A stretch of DNA of 64,000 nucleotides. It comes from Escherichia phage vB_EcoM-ZQ3. Under the pieces are notes generated by a model. The model did not search any database and was not told the origin of the DNA. It saw only the letters and a program-made list of their open reading frames with translations. Positions 4,405 through 50,253 of the stretch are shown in pieces (the first letter of the stretch is position 1; each line of letters opens with the position of its first letter). Made by a program: the position numbers and the translations under genes. The DNA is taken from sequence record MW630116.1, one strand, 5' to 3'.

Positions 4405-5217
4405 TTAGAAACGAGATGCGACTTTCGCATATAAACTTACATTAGAATTCTGTTCTACCTGAGTTGTGGTAGTGTCAACTGCTTCGGCAACAAAATTAAG
4501 ACCGGCAGCGTCATTGTCAACTGTATTTATATTTTCGGTAATAGCGGCTTCTTCTTTAGTAGAACCTTTAACCATTTCTACAATAGCAGTTAACTTAGTA
4601 CCAAATGCGTCAGAATAATCCATACCTTCAACCAGGCCAATAACTTTTTCTTTCTGAGATTCAGTCAGGTCTTTTACGCTTTCATTAATAGCGGTTTCAC
4701 GCTGAACGTAATTGATATATGCATCACGTTTGGTAACTTCTTCGAACAAACGAGCGGTTTCTTCTTTATGTTCGGCCAGCTCTTCTTCCATTTCTGCTAC
4801 AACATCTACAGATTCTTCTGGAACAACAACGTTATGTTCAACAAACAGTTCTTTCAGACCACCAAGCATGGATTCGAACAAATCAGCTTTAATGCCTTTA
4901 TCAACTGCGATTTGGTTTTCTGCGAGCCATTCTTTTGCAAGATGGTCTAGGAATTTAGAAGCTTGTTCAGCCAATTTTTTATCAGCTTTCTCTTCAGCAT
5001 CTTCTTTGGCCTTTTCAACTTCTTCTTCGGCCTTTTCGGCGATGGCTTTGATATGAGATTCAGCCAGTTTGACTGCTTCCTGCTTAACGGTGGCTTCGAA
5101 TACAGTGCTGAAATTAGCTTTAACGTCCGGAGACAGTTCTACTGATTCGAAAACACTATTAAGAGCAACTGAAGTCTCGATGTTTTGAGCTTCTTTCAAA
5201 AGTTGTTCTTTGATCAT
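4405..5217 (-). CDS. 22: prohead core scaffold protein gp22
   Basis: 270 aa, highly acidic/helical, Glu/Lys-rich; position between 21 and 23. Confidence 0.9.
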   Translation of the reverse strand: MIKEQLLKEAQNIETSVALNSVFESVELSPDVKANFSTVFEATVKQEAVKLAESHIKAIAEKAEEEVEKAKEDAEEKADKKLAEQASKFLDHLAKEWLAENQIAVDKGIKADLFESMLGGLKELFVEHNVVVPEESVDVVAEMEEELAEHKEETARLFEEVTKRDAYINYVQRETAINESVKDLTESQKEKVIGLVEGMDYSDAFGTKLTAIVEMVKGSTKEEAAITENINTVDNDAAGLNFVAEAVDTTTTQVEQNSNVSLYAKVASRF

Positions 5218-5250: not shown

Positions 5251-5898
5251 TTATAATGCTTTTAAACTCTCTGCGAGAGCTTTAAATGCTTCATCAGCAC
5301 TGTTTTTGGTGGTTTCCACCGAATTTTCTGATTCTGATTCTGATATTTGTTTAGGAGTAACCCAAGCATCTGGAGCAGAAGGTCCCCATACGGCATCTAC
5401 GCCGACGGTTAATTTAAATCCTTCGTTCACGATACGGTACCCTTTATTGGTGTCGGTTAAAGAACCAAGACCACGAGAGGAAACACCTGGAATCCAACCA
5501 GCTCGTATATTAGCAGCTAATTTATCACCGGGACCATGGTCGCCTTCAATAATTCTAGCACGTCCATATACATCGTTTCCTTTCCACCACATATCTTCAA
5601 TAATGATAGCGGCTTGCATGGGGTCAACATTTGCACGAGGTGGATGGTTTAATTCTCCAAGGGCTTGTTTGGTTTCGACTTGTTCTTTAATATAGTCACT
5701 TACTGCTTTTTCCAAAACGCGTTTAGGATATAAACGTTTATTTCGGTTAACAACCTCTGCCTGAAGAAAAATACCTTCTATATAAAGCCCTGGTTTTAAG
5801 CCAGAATCTTTTCCATCATGAGATTCCAACATTGGAACGCCATCAATAATCTCACCGGGTTGACCCCAAGTTTCAATAAGTAACTCGGGTTTATTCAT
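5251..5898 (-). CDS. 21: prohead core protease gp21
   Basis: 215 aa; strong match to recalled T4 gp21 sequence; synteny. Confidence 0.92.
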   Translation of the reverse strand: MNKPELLIETWGQPGEIIDGVPMLESHDGKDSGLKPGLYIEGIFLQAEVVNRNKRLYPKRVLEKAVSDYIKEQVETKQALGELNHPPRANVDPMQAAIIIEDMWWKGNDVYGRARIIEGDHGPGDKLAANIRAGWIPGVSSRGLGSLTDTNKGYRIVNEGFKLTVGVDAVWGPSAPDAWVTPKQISESESENSVETTKNSADEAFKALAESLKAL

Positions 5899-35842: not shown

Positions 35843-36130
35843 ATGAAAACCTATAAAGAATTTATATCACCTGTTGCTAACGTTTCTACTCTGACCGAAG
35901 CAACCCTTACTTCCGAAGTTATTAAAGCAAATAAAGGACGTGAGGGTAAACCAATGATTAGTCTGGTTGACGGCGAAGAAGTAAAAGGTACTGTTTACTT
36001 AGGGGATGGATGGTCTGCTAAGAAAGATGGCGCTACTATTGTTATCTCTCCGGCTGAAGAGACTGCACTGTTTAAAGCTAAGCATATTTCTGTAGCTCAG
36101 CTTAAAATTGTTGCAAAAACTCTTCTGTAA
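35843..36130 (+). CDS. internal protein (IPI-like) with capsid-targeting N-terminus
   Basis: 95 aa; N-terminus MKTYKEF resembles T4 internal-protein capsid targeting sequence MKTYQEFIAE; position after 57B as T4 ipI. Confidence 0.7.
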   Translation: MKTYKEFISPVANVSTLTEATLTSEVIKANKGREGKPMISLVDGEEVKGTVYLGDGWSAKKDGATIVISPAEETALFKAKHISVAQLKIVAKTLL

Positions 36131-36199: not shown

Positions 36200-36463
36200 A
36201 TGAAAACGTATAAAGAATTTATCGCTGAATCTCAATCTTCTACTCTGTCAGAGAACTACGAATCATTCTCTTACAACAACGACCATGCAATGTTCTACGA
36301 CCGAAACATCGGTACTTATGTCCATGTGTGGGGTGTTAAAGATGGTAACGTAGTTGTTAAGAAAAACTCTAAAGAAGGCAATGGTCGTGGCCAGGTAAAA
36401 ATTACCAGCAAGAAAGCTATCCAAGCTTACGTCGATTATGTTAAACGCGAAGCTGGTATTTAA
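36200..36463 (+). CDS. internal protein-like small protein with capsid-targeting N-terminus
   Basis: 87 aa from MKTYKEFIAE-SQSS; gp21-type cleavage context after Glu10. Confidence 0.6.
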   Translation: MKTYKEFIAESQSSTLSENYESFSYNNDHAMFYDRNIGTYVHVWGVKDGNVVVKKNSKEGNGRGQVKITSKKAIQAYVDYVKREAGI

Positions 36464-38042: not shown

Positions 38043-38114
38043 TGGTGCATCGTATAAAGGTTATTACGGGGAGCTGTTAACTCCTTTATCTTGGTTCGAG
38101 TCCAAGTGCGCCAG
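38043..38114 (+). tRNA. tRNA-Asn (anticodon GTT)
   Basis: acceptor TGGTGCA/TGCGCCA, anticodon stem GGGAG/CTCCT loop CTGTTAA, T arm CTTGG-TTCGAGT-CCAAG; D stem only 3 bp; no encoded CCA. Confidence 0.65.
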
Positions 38115-38188: not shown

Positions 38189-38854
38189 ATGAGCATTTGT
38201 AAACATTGTAATATGGAATTTGATATTTCTAATAAACCTAAAGGATGGATGGCTAACCACACTAGATGGTGTAAATCCAACCCTAAATTGGAATTGTATA
38301 AAGAAAGTTCTAAATCAGCCATTGCAGCAATGAATAAAGCACGTATAGCTTCAGGTAATTTAAACCAGTATGTTGTATCTAAAAAGACTGGTGTCCCTGT
38401 AGTAATTTCGGAAGAGACTAGACAAAAATTGTCAGCCGCTTCATTAGGTAGAGAACACTCTGAGGAATCTAGAATAAAAATATCTAATGCTCGGAAAAAA
38501 TGGTTGAATGAAAACCCTGATAAACATCCTTGGAAGAAAAATACAAAATTTAAATCTGTGCCTTGTGAATTTTTGAAATCTAAATTAATAGAAAACGGAA
38601 TTTCATTTATTGAAGAATACCAACCGGTTAAAAACCGAGCGTATTGCACGGATATTGCTTTAATAGATAAAAAGATTATTATTGAAGTTAATGGAAACCA
38701 ACATTACTCCAATCCTAAGAAAAAGATTTTGGCCCCTTATTATAAAGAACGCCATGATATTATAAAATCATTAGGATGGGAAATATATGAACTTCATTAT
38801 GCTGAAGTTTATAAAGAAGATATTGTAAATAATTTAATTGCCTCTATAGTGTAA
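38189..38854 (+). CDS. putative homing endonuclease (Zn-finger / NUMOD3-like / C-terminal Vsr-DUF559-like nuclease domain)
   Basis: 222 aa from MSICKHC; CxxC...H..C N-terminus, NUMOD3-like ETRQKLSAASLGREHSEESRIKISNARKKW, C-terminal IIEVNGNQHY...D...GWEIYEL; located in tRNA cluster like T4 segB. Confidence 0.6.
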   Translation: MSICKHCNMEFDISNKPKGWMANHTRWCKSNPKLELYKESSKSAIAAMNKARIASGNLNQYVVSKKTGVPVVISEETRQKLSAASLGREHSEESRIKISNARKKWLNENPDKHPWKKNTKFKSVPCEFLKSKLIENGISFIEEYQPVKNRAYCTDIALIDKKIIIEVNGNQHYSNPKKKILAPYYKERHDIIKSLGWEIYELHYAEVYKEDIVNNLIASIV

Positions 38855-38915
38855 TGGATAGCATATAATCGTTCTAAGGTTAATGGTGAGAGTTCAAATC
38901 TTTCTAGAGGCACCA
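38840..38915 (+). tRNA. tRNA-Arg (anticodon TCT)
   Basis: acceptor GCCTCTA/TAGAGGC, anticodon stem TAATC/GGTTA loop GTTCTAA, T arm GAGAG-TTCAAAT-CTTTC, encoded CCA; overlaps last 15 nt of upstream ORF. Confidence 0.8.
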
Positions 38916-39618: not shown

Positions 39619-39626
39619 TATAAATA
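39619..39626 (+). promoter_or_regulatory. late promoter TATAAATA upstream of IP-like gene
   Basis: exact TATAAATA 36 nt upstream of ATG 39662. Confidence 0.45.
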
Positions 39627-39661: not shown

Positions 39662-40282
39662 ATGTATACTTTTAATGAATTTTTAGCCGAAACGGAAGTA
39701 ATCACCGAAGCCGGCGTACGTATGACAAAAGAGAAATGGCAAGCTGCTTACGATGCTATTTCTGGTACAAAAACTAGTACAGAGTTTTTCAAAAACGTTC
39801 AAGCCATGTACGGTATCGACACTTCTAGCCAAAAAGAATATTACAGAGCTTCTAAAGCATTCAAAGATATTGTTAGTGGTGGTGTTTCTGCTAAATCGGG
39901 TTCGCCTAAAGTAAAACCTGCTCCTACCATTCCTAAACCTGCGACCCCTAAAGCAAAACCTGAGCCTAAGCCTGAAGTAAAAGCAACTCCTAAAGCTCCT
40001 GCTCTTAAGTTTGATACTTCTAGCCTGGAAAAAAAATATAAACAACTATCTTCGCTTGTTCGTGATATTGAATCCGATACATCTTCACTCGTTCGTGAAT
40101 TCAATATTCTTCGTAATGGCCAACATATCAACAACCTTGATACTCCAGACCTTTATCGTCTTTATTTGACTATCGAAGGTTTGAAGTATACTCAACCACT
40201 TCACGATGCGATTAAAGAAAAACTTCGTCAGGCAGGTCGTTTGGCTGCTGACGCTGCTCAGTATGCAAAAACTCGTAAGTAA
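39662..40282 (+). CDS. internal protein-like protein with capsid-targeting N-terminus and Pro/Lys-rich linker
   Basis: 206 aa; N-terminus MYTFNEFLAE-TE (variant of MKTYQEFIAE); low-complexity KPAPTIPKPATPKAKPEPKPEVK segment. Confidence 0.55.
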   Translation: MYTFNEFLAETEVITEAGVRMTKEKWQAAYDAISGTKTSTEFFKNVQAMYGIDTSSQKEYYRASKAFKDIVSGGVSAKSGSPKVKPAPTIPKPATPKAKPEPKPEVKATPKAPALKFDTSSLEKKYKQLSSLVRDIESDTSSLVREFNILRNGQHINNLDTPDLYRLYLTIEGLKYTQPLHDAIKEKLRQAGRLAADAAQYAKTRK

Positions 40283-47808: not shown

Positions 47809-48297
47809 ATGAATATATTTGAAATGCTTCGTAATGACGAAGGTCTTAGACTGACTTTATACAAAGACACCGAAGGCTTTTGGACGATTGGCATAGGCCA
47901 TTTAGTAACAAAGAACCCGTCTTTAGCCGTAGCTAAAGCTGAACTTGACAGAATGATCGGTCGTAAATGCAACGGTACAATTACCCTTGATGAGGCTGAA
48001 AAGCTATTTAATGAAGACGTTGATAAAGCCGTTCGCGGAATCTTGGGTAATGCTAAACTTAAACCGGTATATGATTCTTTAGATGCAGTTCGTCGATGTG
48101 CATTGGTCAATATGGTCTTCCAAATGGGTGTAGCAGGCGTCGCAGGTTTTACTAATTCTCTTCGTATGCTTCAACAGAAACGTTGGGATGAAGCGGCAGT
48201 AAATCTAGCCCAATCTAAATGGTATCGTCAGACACCTAATCGCGCGAAACGCGTAATCTCAACATTTAAAACAGGAACTTGGAAAGCGTATATATGA
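47809..48297 (+). CDS. e: lysozyme (endolysin)
   Basis: 162 aa from [31 protein letters not shown]; catalytic Glu11/Asp20/Thr26 context conserved as in T4 lysozyme. Confidence 0.95.
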
Positions 48298-48575
48298 AAA
48301 CATATAGTGAATTTTTATCAGAATCTATTCTTAACGAAGCTACTGACACATTTGCAACTAAGCTAGGTGCAGCTTTGGTTGAAGCTGAAAGTCTATTAGC
48401 ACGTATTTCTGAACTTGCTAGTAAGATAGATACTCGCAAATTTGAGCGCACCAGTGATATCGTTAAGCTTGAAGCCTTGTTGCGTATGTGTGATAAACCG
48501 GAAGAAATCGCTAAGAACGGCTCGCTGATGAAACAACGTCTTGAAAAATATATTTCAGGCGCTTCAGAAAAATAG
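48294..48575 (+). CDS. internal protein-like protein with capsid-targeting N-terminus
   Basis: 93 aa from [11 protein letters not shown]; ATGA overlap with e stop. Confidence 0.6.
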
Positions 48576-48576
48576 T

Positions 48577-48615
48577 GTTTACTTCCTCCAAGGGTTTTGA
48601 TACTATACATTCATC
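48577..48615 (+). promoter_or_regulatory. early promoter cassette
   Basis: GTTTAC-N18-TACTAT; spacer CCTCCAAG pairs with downstream CTTGGAGG containing the denV SD. Confidence 0.5.
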
Positions 48616-48633
48616 AACTACTTGGAGGAAATT

Positions 48634-49047
48634 ATGACTCGTATCAATTTAACACTTGTTTCTGAACTGACCGACCAACATCTTATGGCTGAGTATCGTG
48701 AATTACCACGCGTATTTGGTGCAGTCCGTAAACATGTTCAAAACGGTAAACGTGTAAAGGATTTTAAAATCTCCCCGACATTTATCTTAGGCACAGGTCA
48801 TGTAACATTCTTTTACGACAAACTCGAATTTTTACGTTTACGTCAAATCGAGCTAATCGCTGAATGCTTGAAACGTGGTTTCAAAATCAAGGACACGACT
48901 GTCCAAGATATTTCCGACATCCCTGCCGAATTTCGTAATAATTATGTCCCGTCCGAAGCGTCCATTGCGATAAGTCAAGCACGCTTAGACGAAAAAATTG
49001 CTCAACGTCCTACTTGGTACAAATACTATGGTAAATCAATTTACTAA
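48634..49047 (+). CDS. denV: endonuclease V (pyrimidine dimer DNA glycosylase)
   Basis: 137 aa from [34 protein letters not shown]; matches recalled T4 DenV. Confidence 0.92.
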
Positions 49048-49078
49048 GGAAAAAGGTTGCGATGGTAAAGCTTAAACA

Positions 49079-49118
49079 GTTTACGCTTAAGTATTAATAT
49101 GGTATAATTACTCTATCA
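49079..49118 (+). promoter_or_regulatory. early promoter cassette (-10 TATAAT)
   Basis: GTTTAC-N18-TATAAT. Confidence 0.5.
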
Positions 49119-49138
49119 AAACAAACAAGGAAACAAAA

Positions 49139-49441
49139 ATGAAAACATATCAAGAATTTATTACTGAAGCGCGAGTGAGTGCAGGTAAATTAGAAGCCGC
49201 TATAAATAAAAAGGCCCATTCATTTCACGATTTGTCCGATAAAGACCGTAAGAAACTTGTAAGCCTTTATATTGACAAAGAGCGTATTCTCGCTCTTCCT
49301 GGCGCTAATGAAGGTAAACAGGCCAAGCCTTTGAATGCTGTTGAAAAGAAAATTGATAACTTTGCTTCTAAATTCGGTATGTCTATGGATGACCTTCAGC
49401 AAGCGGCTATCGAAGCAGCTAAAGTAATTAAAGGTAAATAA
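49139..49441 (+). CDS. internal protein (IPII/IPIII-like)
   Basis: 100 aa from MKTYQEFITE-ARVSAGKLEAA; canonical capsid-targeting sequence. Confidence 0.7.
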   Translation: MKTYQEFITEARVSAGKLEAAINKKAHSFHDLSDKDRKKLVSLYIDKERILALPGANEGKQAKPLNAVEKKIDNFASKFGMSMDDLQQAAIEAAKVIKGK

Positions 49442-49485: not shown

Positions 49486-49713
49486 TTGGAGAGGTAAAAT
49501 GACTCGATGAAAAAATTTTAATGAAGCCACACTGGTATAAGTATTAAGGCAAAAATATTTACATTCAAATAACATGGGAACAAGCTGGACCTCATGATTC
49601 TATGAGGGATTCCCGCCAACCTGTAATAAGGTCGAGCCCAAGTGCGGTAATGGGTAAATACAGAAATGGACAATTCATGTGCCATGGAATGGCCCAAACT
49701 TAGAGAGAACAAA

Positions 49714-50253
49714 ATGAAAACATTTTTAACTGGACCTTATCTATCCCTGATGAATGCTTTTACACACCATTCTGATGCTAGAGTAGAAGAAATTTGTAAG
49801 AACGGTTATGTCCCACCATTTGAAGACATACTCAAGCAGTACTGTACACTTCGTTTAGACGGTGGCAGACAATCAGGTAAATCCACTGCAGTAACTAATT
49901 TTGCTGCTAATTGGCTGCACGACGATGGAACAGTTATTGTTCTTTCTAATACTTCAGCTTATGCTAAAATTTCTGCTGGCAACATTAAAAAAGAATTTTC
50001 TCGTTATTCTAGCGATGATATTCGATTCCGTTTATTTACTGATTCTGTCCGTAGTTTTATTGGCAATGAAGGTTCTAAATTCCGTGGATTAACGCTTTCT
50101 CGTATTCTATACATAATTGACGAGCCTATTAAAGCTCCTGATATGGATAAGATTTACAATGTCCATATTAAATCAGTACAGCACTGCTGCAAAAGCAAAT
50201 ATTGCATAGGCGGTACTGCTCGTCCTCAATTTTTTGTGATTGGAATGCAATGA
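49714..50253 (+). CDS. P-loop NTPase-like protein
   Basis: 179 aa from MKTFLTGPY; Walker A GGRQSGKST. Confidence 0.55.
   Translation: MKTFLTGPYLSLMNAFTHHSDARVEEICKNGYVPPFEDILKQYCTLRLDGGRQSGKSTAVTNFAANWLHDDGTVIVLSNTSAYAKISAGNIKKEFSRYSSDDIRFRLFTDSVRSFIGNEGSKFRGLTLSRILYIIDEPIKAPDMDKIYNVHIKSVQHCCKSKYCIGGTARPQFFVIGMQ

Follow-up and report, generated by a model that had tools for sequence, protein, structure and literature searches.

Organisation of the e-denV region

The window analysed here, the whole 64,000-nucleotide stretch of Escherichia phage vB_EcoM-ZQ3 (sequence record MW630116.1), is that of an RB69-like Mosigvirus and shares 98.5% nucleotide identity with phage HX01. Downstream of the lysozyme gene e, whose counterpart carries a glycoside hydrolase annotation in HX01 and phi25-307, two small ORFs lie on either side of denV (Table 1), the product of which aligns with DenV of T4, ime09 and JS09. 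The first, ipD (ORF 48294), overlaps the stop codon of e as ATGA, its ATG occupying 48294-48296 and the TGA of e 48295-48297, and the second, ipE (ORF 49139), begins MKTYQEFITEA. The original prediction described this pair, of 93 and 100 residues, as internal-protein-like genes flanking denV, and the description holds. Both are ordinary, previously annotated T4-type internal proteins, ipE being an orthologue of IPII (93% identical to the T4 protein) and ipD a member of a PHROG family named 'internal head protein'. Comparison of the internal protein (IP) loci with those of related phages finds ipD and ipE annotated as internal proteins there, with a cargo that differs from phage to phage.

It had also been proposed that, with three ORFs at 35.8-40.3 kb, the window encodes five capsid-targeted proteins, each with a different mature domain. 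Loose peptide patterns indeed find exactly ORFs 35843, 36200, 39662, 48294 and 49139, and five-way pairwise BLASTP of the mature domains gives no match at E<1e-3. In ipA the mature domain begins at residue 20, residues 20-95 corresponding to positions 1-76 of the PF11634 model. The middle of ipC is Lys/Pro-rich, and a homologue of this protein in an IMG/VR locus (L031) bears the canonical tag MKTYNEFLNE in place of the degenerate one; an exact late-promoter motif, TATAAATA, is present nearby at 39619. A sixth candidate, ORF 49714-50253 (MKTFLTGPY…), was rejected as the vs.8 orthologue without the E6-F7 core; its counterparts in ime09, JS09 and T4 begin MRTF.

Table 1. Coordinates of the genes and sites discussed, with the principal evidence for each (a slash marks the expected cleavage point)
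Feature	Position	Strand	Evidence or remark
gp22, prohead scaffolding core protein, expected cargo-receiving structure	4405..5217	-	Pfam T4_CASP 1.5e-89
gp21, prohead protease, expected tag-removing enzyme	5251..5898	-	Pfam Peptidase_S77 2.6e-107
ipA, IPI orthologue, MKTYKEFISP…TLTE/A	35843..36130	+	Pfam IPI_T4 PF11634 3.2e-50; PHROG 4363
ipB, 87-aa tagged ORF, MKTYKEFIAE/S	36200..36463	+	PHROG 13302, unknown function
ipC, 206-aa ORF, degenerate tag MYTFNEFLAE/T	39662..40282	+	PHROG 2280 E 1.7e-57
e, T4-type lysozyme	47809..48297	+	Pfam Phage_lysozyme 7.7e-14; stop overlaps ipD start
ipD, 93 aa, Ip5 / RB69-ORF127c-type internal head protein	48294..48575	+	PHROG 3499 E 1.2e-46
denV, endonuclease V, pyrimidine-dimer glycosylase, between ipD and ipE	48634..49047	+	Pfam Pyr_excise 3.3e-14
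Sigma-70 / T4-early-type promoter-like site, 5' of ipE	49080..49108	+	consensus match, 10/12 positions
ipE, 100-aa precursor, IPII orthologue	49139..49441	+	PHROG 7857 E 4.5e-55; T4 IPII 93% aa
Decayed second denV copy	49499..49572	+	BLASTN 94% to ime09 denV 3' end

A conserved N-terminal tag on unrelated proteins

The five tagged ORFs have a mean pairwise identity of 0.65 over residues 1-10 and of 0.06 over residues 11-70. The window contains four matches to the corresponding DNA pattern, ATGAAAACNTAYNNNGARTTY, where 100 dinucleotide-preserving shuffles give an expectation of 0.00, so chance does not account for the tag. In T4 IPIII, mutagenesis of the tag has assigned targeting mainly to residues 4 and 7 and processing to residues 8 and 10, the gp21 protease cleaving after L/I-x-E (PMC9026906). 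From this we defined a capsid targeting sequence (CTS) by an aromatic residue 4 and Phe 7 at the extreme N-terminus (PMC9026906), and a processing site by an L/I-x-E motif that closes near residue 10, or as far in as 19 in IPI, with a small residue directly after it. The four tag determinants are present in both proteins: Y4 and F7 in ipD (MKTYSEF) and ipE (MKTYQEF), then I8-T9-E10/A in ipE and L8-S9-E10/S in ipD, which has a second site at L13-N14-E15/A. Of 122 tagged ORFs from IMG/VR, 79 have Ala or Ser at position 11, and gp21 and gp22 are encoded in the same window as ipD and ipE. Compared with the T4 tag MKTYQEFIAE, ipD matches at 7/10 positions; the tag of ipE is canonical, as had been claimed, but it is not the single most canonical one in the window, since it ties with that of ORF 36200 (MKTYKEFIAE), both matching at 9/10.

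The tag is kept across orthologues and across unrelated cargos as the remainder diverges. IPII orthologues that are only 46-53% identical overall retain M1, K2, T3, Y4, F7, E10, A11 and R12, and the ipD family (44-61% identity) retains M1, K2, T3 and F7, with Y4 changing only to F and L/I-x-E always present at 8-10, 9-11 or 13-15. Residues 8-10 themselves vary in this family (LSE, LTV, LAE, ATK), which leaves the exact ipD cleavage site uncertain. Codon use at Thr3 varies, with ACC, ACG, ACT or ACA among the window's tagged ORFs, and ACT in 58, ACA in 33, ACC in 18 and ACG in 13 of the 122 from IMG/VR. In viral metagenomes at least 140 tagged proteins fall, among the matches listed, into at least about 70 unrelated mature-domain clusters. 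The prediction would have failed had the N-terminal similarity not been under selection in related genomes; it is kept across them, with synonymous codon changes tolerated.

ipE is the orthologue of T4 IPII

The match of ipE to PHROG 7857 spans positions 1-100 of 100, its counterpart is annotated ipII in the closest genomes, and it is 93% identical to T4 IPII over the same 100 residues with a propeptide that differs only by A9T. The T4 record X04567 annotates the IPII precursor from -10 to 90, and ipE is likewise predicted to be cleaved after E10 to give a basic 90-residue mature protein (pI 9.7), which contains 18 K+R and 12 D+E. Pfam and NCBIfam searches with ipE gave no hit above threshold, DUF7412 and ATP synthase delta being noise below it. 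Like its T4 counterpart it lies between e and vs.8 beside denV, although the T4 order is e-ipIII-ipII-denV and that of the window e-ipD-denV-ipII, followed by a decayed second denV.

The promoter-like site preceding ipE, (G)TTTACG and TATAAT spaced by 17 nt with an extended -10 TG, fits the GTTTAC...TATAAT pattern and is the best candidate in the region. The exact late promoter TATAAATA was not found upstream of ipD or ipE, where there are only one-mismatch versions, before e; an occurrence at 49201 was rejected as a late promoter for ipE, as it falls inside the gene. With no exact late promoter, and an early-type one before ipE, late expression of the two genes is assumed by analogy with T4.

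The T4 protein is a measured virion component, at ~360 copies per head (PMC9026906, Table 1), and abolishes defence by fused GmrSD (bioRxiv 10.1101/2023.04.06.535777). Given the 93% identity of this GmrSD inhibitor to ipE, single-chain type IV restriction enzymes of the GmrSD/BrxU type are the likely target that ipE would inhibit. The substrates of such enzymes are DNAs with sugar-modified cytosine, among them the arabinosylated DNA of Mosigvirus phages. The assay of Silas et al. concerned the T4 IpII protein and glucosyl-hydroxymethylcytosine phages, not a Mosigvirus protein and arabinosylated DNA, and phages of the window's type differ from T4 in having arabinosylated, not glucosyl-hydroxymethylated, cytosine (PMC13390438). 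BrxU, an enzyme of the GmrSD family, restricts a Mosigvirus with arabinosylated cytosines (PMC13390438).

ipD is an Ip5/RB69 ORF127c-type internal protein

The match of ipD to PHROG 3499 covers positions 1-85 of 85. Many genomes, RefSeq Mosigvirus and Tequatrovirus among them, have a 100% identical copy labelled 'internal head protein', and at least 132 phage records match at 99% or higher amino acid identity. BLASTP also finds PP01 Ip5 (5.9e-26) and Bas37_0261 (7.2e-24) at 48-51% identity. These Ip5 proteins (PP01, T2, Bas37 bas37_0261) and RB69 ORF127c align with ipD over ~84 residues; Ip5 shares with it PHROG 3499, a similar length (85 and 93 residues) and an N-terminal MKT[YF]xEF tag, and the ime09 annotation calls an ipD-identical protein RB69ORF127c. 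The two differ in location, Ip5 lying in the other IP locus, after 57B, where it replaces ipI, and ipD after e, and in processing signals, Ip5 having ATE or ATK instead of L/I-x-E at 8-10 and I-T-E at 13-15, whereas ipD has L/I-x-E at both positions. A word-indexed protein search with ipD found near-identical proteins only and an exhaustive phmmer search just four further relatives, and the family is therefore small and confined to T-even-like phages. A literature search on RB69ORF127c, Ip5 and Ip10 found only unrelated papers.

The mature part of ipD is predicted to comprise 78-83 residues and to be all-helical and near-neutral (pI 6.3), with 14 K+R and 14 D+E, unlike the basic T4 IPs. An AlphaFold2 model of moderate confidence (pLDDT 71, most of the mature part above 70) has three helices, and relatives at 44-61% identity keep the length and two conserved helical blocks. 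Foldseek against the PDB returned nothing below E=3 for this model, so that structure allows no functional inference, and ipD has no family in Pfam or NCBIfam. With a near-neutral mature part and no match to a PDB fold or to a Pfam or NCBIfam family, its activity can only be guessed at.

The mature domains of ipD and ipE do not resemble those of IPI, IPIII or Bas37_0260. T4 IPI, the paradigm of an injected anti-restriction protein, offers the same delivery logic of N-terminal tag, gp21 cleavage and injection, but mature ipD and ipE are unlike its domain: the 76-residue IPI* model (IPI_T4, PF11634) matches neither and in the window finds only the separate IPI orthologue, ORF 35843. PHROG 7857, the IPII family, has no match to ipD, and in an all-against-all BLASTP neither ipD nor ipE clusters with the IPIII of T4 or phi25-307. 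Bas37_0260, from the HIDEN-SEQ preprint of 2025, is a small cargo (77 residues) in an IP locus with the same tag, but has no similarity to ipD or ipE past the first 11 residues; kinship of the two with this McrBC inhibitor was rejected, the resemblance being confined to the tag.

Several internal proteins have been tied to host defences, IPI inhibiting GmrS/GmrD (PMC3012670), IPIII being required on ECOR17 (PMC9391042) and the tagged Bas37_0260 protein inhibiting McrBC (bioRxiv 10.1101/2025.11.20.689424). For ipD our best guess, a speculative one that could fall either way, is an anti-defence role, the injected protein inhibiting some first-line host defence that is particular to certain strains. 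In the Bas37 transposon data, insertions in bas37_0261, which is 48% identical to ipD, are depleted on CFT073 (log2FC -2.09, adjusted p printed as 0.00000; bioRxiv 10.1101/2025.11.20.689424) and not on CFE299 (log2FC -0.01; supplementary table of the same preprint). The CFT073 phenotype appears in one supplementary table, on which the authors are silent, and could reflect a polar effect. It is conceivable, if rather doubtful, that the Ip5/ORF127c-type cargo is an injected inhibitor of a specific defence in this uropathogenic E. coli, the one observation pointing that way being the four-fold depletion on CFT073 and not CFE299. CFT073 probably carries a single-chain GmrSD.

Cargo exchange between e and vs.8

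The region is mosaic. Relative to ime09, a Tequatrovirus, nudE and the 5' part of e show 57-66% nucleotide identity; the value is 97-99% over 48194-48693, which takes in the 3' part of e, ipD and 60 nt at the start of denV, and beyond 48693 it drops to 76% and then 50%. The slot after denV is occupied by IPII in the window and by Ip4 in ime09; JS09 has ORF125c, Ip10 and IpII there, and phi25-307 four tagged ORFs and a further one. At the other slot, tagged ORFs adjoin the 3' end of e in 11 IMG/VR loci and bring at least seven different cargos between them. In the decayed denV copy beyond ipE, the first 8 nt of denV (ATGACTCG) run directly into the final ~66 nt of an ime09-type denV, with an in-frame stop (…DEKILMKPHWYKY*GKNIYIQ, the asterisk marking the stop); the copy also matches the T4 ipII-denV junction by BLASTN, and JS09 keeps a differently truncated denV of 45 residues at the same position. 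The positions just after e and after denV thus appear to behave as exchangeable slots, in which cargo may be swapped by homologous recombination through conserved flanks, namely the 3' end of e, the tag-coding sequence and denV.

Packaging, delivery and alternative explanations

ipD and ipE are very probably tagged, packaged internal head proteins. By analogy with the T4 experiments on packaging, cleavage and injection, their N-terminal ~10 residues would act as a CTS, tethering the precursor to the gp22-based scaffolding core during prohead building, and the gp21 prohead protease would cut after the Glu of L/I-x-E, at E10 in ipE and at E10 and/or E15 in ipD. The mature cargo would remain in the head alongside the DNA, as it does in T4 at hundreds of copies per particle, and be ejected into the next host along with the genome; co-injection would therefore let it act before any phage gene expression. 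Loading into the head for injection with the DNA is the most likely function of the shared 10-residue tag. Our literature search found no Mosigvirus virion proteome.

An improbable alternative accepts packaging but gives ipD and ipE a mainly structural or physical role, in neutralising DNA charge or in core and head assembly, rather than an anti-defence one. T4 IPs are basic and bind DNA at low salt, their lysines contacting DNA phosphates, and IPIII mutants assemble heads more slowly and have a burst ~40% of normal (PMC3012670, PMC9026906); the pI of mature ipE would suit such a role. T4 mutants without all three IPs are nevertheless viable on laboratory strains (PMC9026906), specific anti-restriction targets are known for IPI, IpII and Bas37_0260, mature ipD is not basic, and the turnover of cargo between close relatives is more in keeping with an arms race than with a conserved structural function.

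A good deal less probable still is that the N-terminus is kept as DNA, as a translation-initiation region or recombination linker, in front of cytoplasmic, early and unpackaged proteins. The tag-coding sequence does lie at cassette boundaries, recombination end-points map beside it, the promoter preceding ipE is of early and not late type, and tag-less IPIII expressed in the host cytoplasm is still functional (PMC9391042). However, amino acids are kept as codons vary, the mark of a peptide under constraint, the conserved positions are those that T4 mutagenesis tied to targeting and cleavage, and T4 IPII, the 93% identical relative of ipE, is found in the virion at the copy number given above (PMC9026906). 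The two roles are in any case compatible, as a conserved peptide tag automatically supplies a recombination linker. It is scarcely credible that ORF 48294 is a remnant, decaying or without function, as the division of the equivalent region into two CDSs of 40 and 32 residues in the HX01 RefSeq record might suggest. The ORF is intact in the window and has the many near-identical matches noted above, its more distant relatives keep length and helical blocks, and its model is mostly above pLDDT 70 in the mature part; a frameshift, or an error in sequencing, is the likelier source of the split in the HX01 record.

Implications for T-even-like phages

The genes, the tag, their variability and the locus were already established, and the analysis brings nothing new for the window: publications on the internal-protein CTS system go back to the 1990s and the present observation is a correct rediscovery. 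The names Ip5 and Ip10 were reportedly introduced by Repoila in 1994, which is consistent with the 1994-era EMBL protein identifiers that the JS09 record gives, CAA84453 and CAA84455. CTS mutagenesis dates from 1996, and reviews (PMC9026906, PMC3012670) credit Repoila 1994 with internal-protein diversity. The practical yield is a clean annotation, comprising an IPII orthologue, an Ip5-type internal protein, an IPI orthologue and two more tagged cargos. The public transposon data also hint that an Ip5-type target might be sought in CFT073; if the CFT073 reading were true, the T-even internal-protein types whose targets are defined, wholly or in part, would rise to five, the earlier ones being IPI, IpII, Bas37_0260 and IPIII. 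Among phage counter-defence factors, internal proteins alone enter with the DNA instead of being made after entry, and they therefore govern the first seconds of infection. Their repertoire contributes to host range and is relevant to the choice of therapeutic phages.

Tag, cargos and gene layout

The two small ORFs flanking denV, here termed ipD and ipE (see table), lie with denV exactly where the original prediction placed them, and the ipD start overlaps the stop of the T4-type lysozyme gene e, an ATGA being common to the ipD ATG and the e stop codon. That prediction also held that five window ORFs share an N-terminal capsid targeting sequence of about ten residues (the tag), each ahead of a different mature domain. 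Searching the window with a degenerate DNA pattern for MKTYxEF gives four matches where shuffles predict 0.00, and loose peptide patterns add a single ORF, the degenerate one at 39662, so that by these two patterns the tagged ORFs number exactly five. No pair of mature domains shows BLASTP similarity at E<1e-3 in an all-against-all run, and mean identity among the five is 65% at residues 1-10 versus 6% over the next 60. The ipE tag, described as the most canonical, does match T4 MKTYQEFIAE at nine of ten positions, but ties with ORF 36200, which also scores nine.

Features of the window discussed in the text
Feature	Position	Strand	Remarks
ipA, IPI orthologue	35843		Pfam IPI_T4; mature domain from residue 20
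ipB, tagged cargo ORF	36200
tRNA-Asn	38043-38114
ORF, 223 aa	38183-38854	+	within tRNA cluster
tRNA-Arg	38840-38915
Late-promoter motif	39619		exact TATAAATA; 5' of ORF 39662-40282
ipC, tagged ORF, 206 aa	39662-40282	+	degenerate tag MYTFNEFLAE; PHROG 2280
ipD, 93 aa	48294-48575	+	tagged
denV	48634-49047	+	Pfam Pyr_excise
ipE, 100 aa	49139-49441	+	tag MKTYQEFITE
Decayed second denV	49499-49572	+	directly 3' of ipII (ipE)
vs.8 orthologue	49714-50253	+	Walker-A-like motif GGRQSGKST

The + strand order is nudE, e, ipD, denV, ipE, vs.8, vs.7 and further genes; 5' of the nudE-vs.7 block lie gene 1, 57A, 57B, two tagged ORFs, tRNAs and the third tagged ORF, and at the far left, on the - strand, the head morphogenesis genes gp20, gp68-like, gp21, gp22, gp23 and gp24. 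Identity over the 47.7-49.8 kb region is 99.1% with Escherichia phage ECCR664 and 98.5% with HX01 (Mosigvirus, RB69-like Tevenvirinae). ORF 39662-40282, whose IMG/VR homologue has a canonical tag, has a second I-T-E (residues 14-16), and its middle is of low complexity and rich in Lys and Pro (…PKVKPAPTIPKPATPKAKPEPKPEVKATPKAP…); PHROG 2280 carries no functional assignment. At the position of the 223-aa ORF, PP01 and Bas37 have a segB-type homing endonuclease. The vs.8 orthologue gives weak, sub-threshold Pfam matches to AAA_14 and Terminase_6N, and the longer N-terminal extension annotated in T4 is closed by a stop codon in the window.

Selection on the tag and its predicted role

Across relatives, four lines of evidence indicate that the N-terminal similarity is selected. 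Two IPII orthologues, from Yersinia phage phiR1-RT (only 53% overall identity) and Serratia phage 92A1 (46%), retain M1 K2 T3 Y4 F7 E10 A11 R12. Within the ipD family M1 K2 T3 F7 are invariant and Y4 is replaced by F alone; residues 8-10 are variable, with L/I-x-E at 8-10, 9-11 or 13-15 in every member. The five window copies encode Thr3 as ACC, ACG, ACT, ACA and ACA, position 8 is ATA, ATC, ATT or TTA, and synonymous variation recurs in 122 metagenomic ORFs among the matches listed; the constraint is therefore on the peptide, not just the DNA. Scanning IMG/VR with the degenerate tag pattern gave at least 120 stretches, and the matches listed, together with reference proteins, comprise at least 140 tagged proteins, whose mature domains form about 70 unrelated clusters. 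Mutagenesis in T4 had pinpointed these conserved positions, residues 4 and 7 for targeting and 8 and 10 for processing, with gp21 cutting after L/I-x-E (PMC9026906). As judged from these sequence comparisons, the tag is under selection at the peptide level. The pattern MKTY(I/Q)EF(L/I)xE is also matched by the N-termini of very long ORFs on viral contigs of environmental origin in IMG/VR: L019, L063, L089, L114 (836 aa) and L053 (610 aa).

In T4 the tag attaches to the core, gp21 cleaves, and the protein is ejected with the DNA (PMC3012670, PMC9026906). By homology we infer that in this phage the tag would attach the precursor to the gp22 core and gp21 would then remove it, the mature protein remaining in the head until ejection with the DNA. 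Both machinery genes, gp21 and gp22, are encoded within the window; a literature search found no Mosigvirus virion proteome.

Identity of ipE and ipD

On alignment ipE is IPII, being 93% identical to the T4 protein over all 100 residues and matching PHROG 7857 along its whole length; in the T4 record X04567 the IPII precursor is numbered -10 to 90. ipD falls in PHROG 3499, 'internal head protein', its label also in RefSeq, with RB69ORF127c noted in the ime09 record. It occurs at 99% or greater amino acid identity in at least 132 phage records, of both Mosigvirus and Tequatrovirus, whereas distant relatives (44-61% identity) are few and include Ip5 of T2, PP01 and Bas37, whose gene follows 57B in the other IP locus. 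The mature part is near-neutral with three predicted helices; its predicted structure has no PDB fold match, and the published literature gives no function for ipD. The gene is intact in the window, unlike in the HX01 record (NC_018855; L001 3595-3863), where its equivalent is given as a pair of short CDSs (40 and 32 aa) labelled 'internal head protein', probably through a frameshift or sequencing error in that record.

The e-denV locus as a cassette site

In the five related genomes compared, tagged genes around denV recur. The order is e-ipIII-ipII-denV-vs.8 in T4, e-ipII-denV-ipIII in phiR1-RT, e-ipD-denV-Ip4 in ime09, e-ipD-denV-ORF125c-Ip10-IpII-truncated denV in JS09, and e-ipD-denV plus five ORFs in phi25-307, four of the five bearing canonical tags and the other a truncated one; it is therefore common for denV to have IP genes on either side. 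Compared with Tequatrovirus ime09, nudE and the 5' part of e show 57-66% nucleotide identity and the stretch 48194-48693 (3' e, ipD and ~60 nt at the start of denV) 97-99%; beyond 48693 the value is 76%, dropping to 50%. This sharp mosaic boundary marks the ipD cassette as recently exchanged between genera. A tagged ORF adjoins the 3' end of e in at least 11 IMG/VR loci (L011, L014, L021, L040, L041, L066, L070, L080, L084, L097 and L103), with at least seven different cargo families, IPII and IPIII included, and the junction in these eleven reads …ACTTGGAAAGCAT|ATGAAAAC. The e-denV locus is a cassette site. In most of the eleven loci the e reading frame appears to overlap the tag-coding sequence by a few codons.

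The decayed second denV joins 8 nt of the denV 5' end (ATGACTCG) to the terminal ~66 nt of a denV of the Tequatrovirus (ime09) type, and has an in-frame stop (…DEKILMKPHWYKY*GKNIYIQ). It is probably the scar of a cassette insertion via recombination within denV. JS09 carries at the equivalent site a differently truncated denV of 45 aa, and the differing truncations suggest an ancestral e-ipD-denV-…-ipII-denV arrangement whose second denV has since decayed separately in different lineages.

Cargo function

A conserved tag, diverse cargos and an anti-restriction logic are reviewed knowledge (PMC3012670, PMC9026906), the cargo diversity being credited in review to Repoila 1994, and ipD and ipE are already annotated in public genomes. 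The original observation is confirmed and its interpretation supported, and the finding is a correct rediscovery of what was already known.

IPI inhibits GmrS/GmrD (PMC3012670), IPIII is required on ECOR17 (PMC9391042), and Bas37_0260, a new tagged protein unrelated to ipD and ipE except for the tag, inhibits McrBC (bioRxiv 10.1101/2025.11.20.689424). The HIDEN-SEQ table of the latter study (supplementary file 8) offers a lead, not a result, for ipD function: insertions in bas37_0261 (L128 1364-1621), an Ip5-type gene 48% identical to ipD, are depleted on CFT073 (log2FC -2.09, adjusted p printed as 0.00000; -1.56 for the gene upstream) and show no depletion on CFE299 (-0.01), the CFT073 effect not being discussed by its authors. 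That Ip5-type cargo targets a CFT073-specific defence is conceivable, though we think it rather unlikely. T4 IpII abolishes fused-GmrSD defence whereas IpI does not (bioRxiv 10.1101/2023.04.06.535777), and a Mosigvirus with arabinosylated cytosines is restricted by BrxU, a GmrSD-family enzyme (PMC13390438); it is therefore reasonable for this phage to carry an IPII-type inhibitor.
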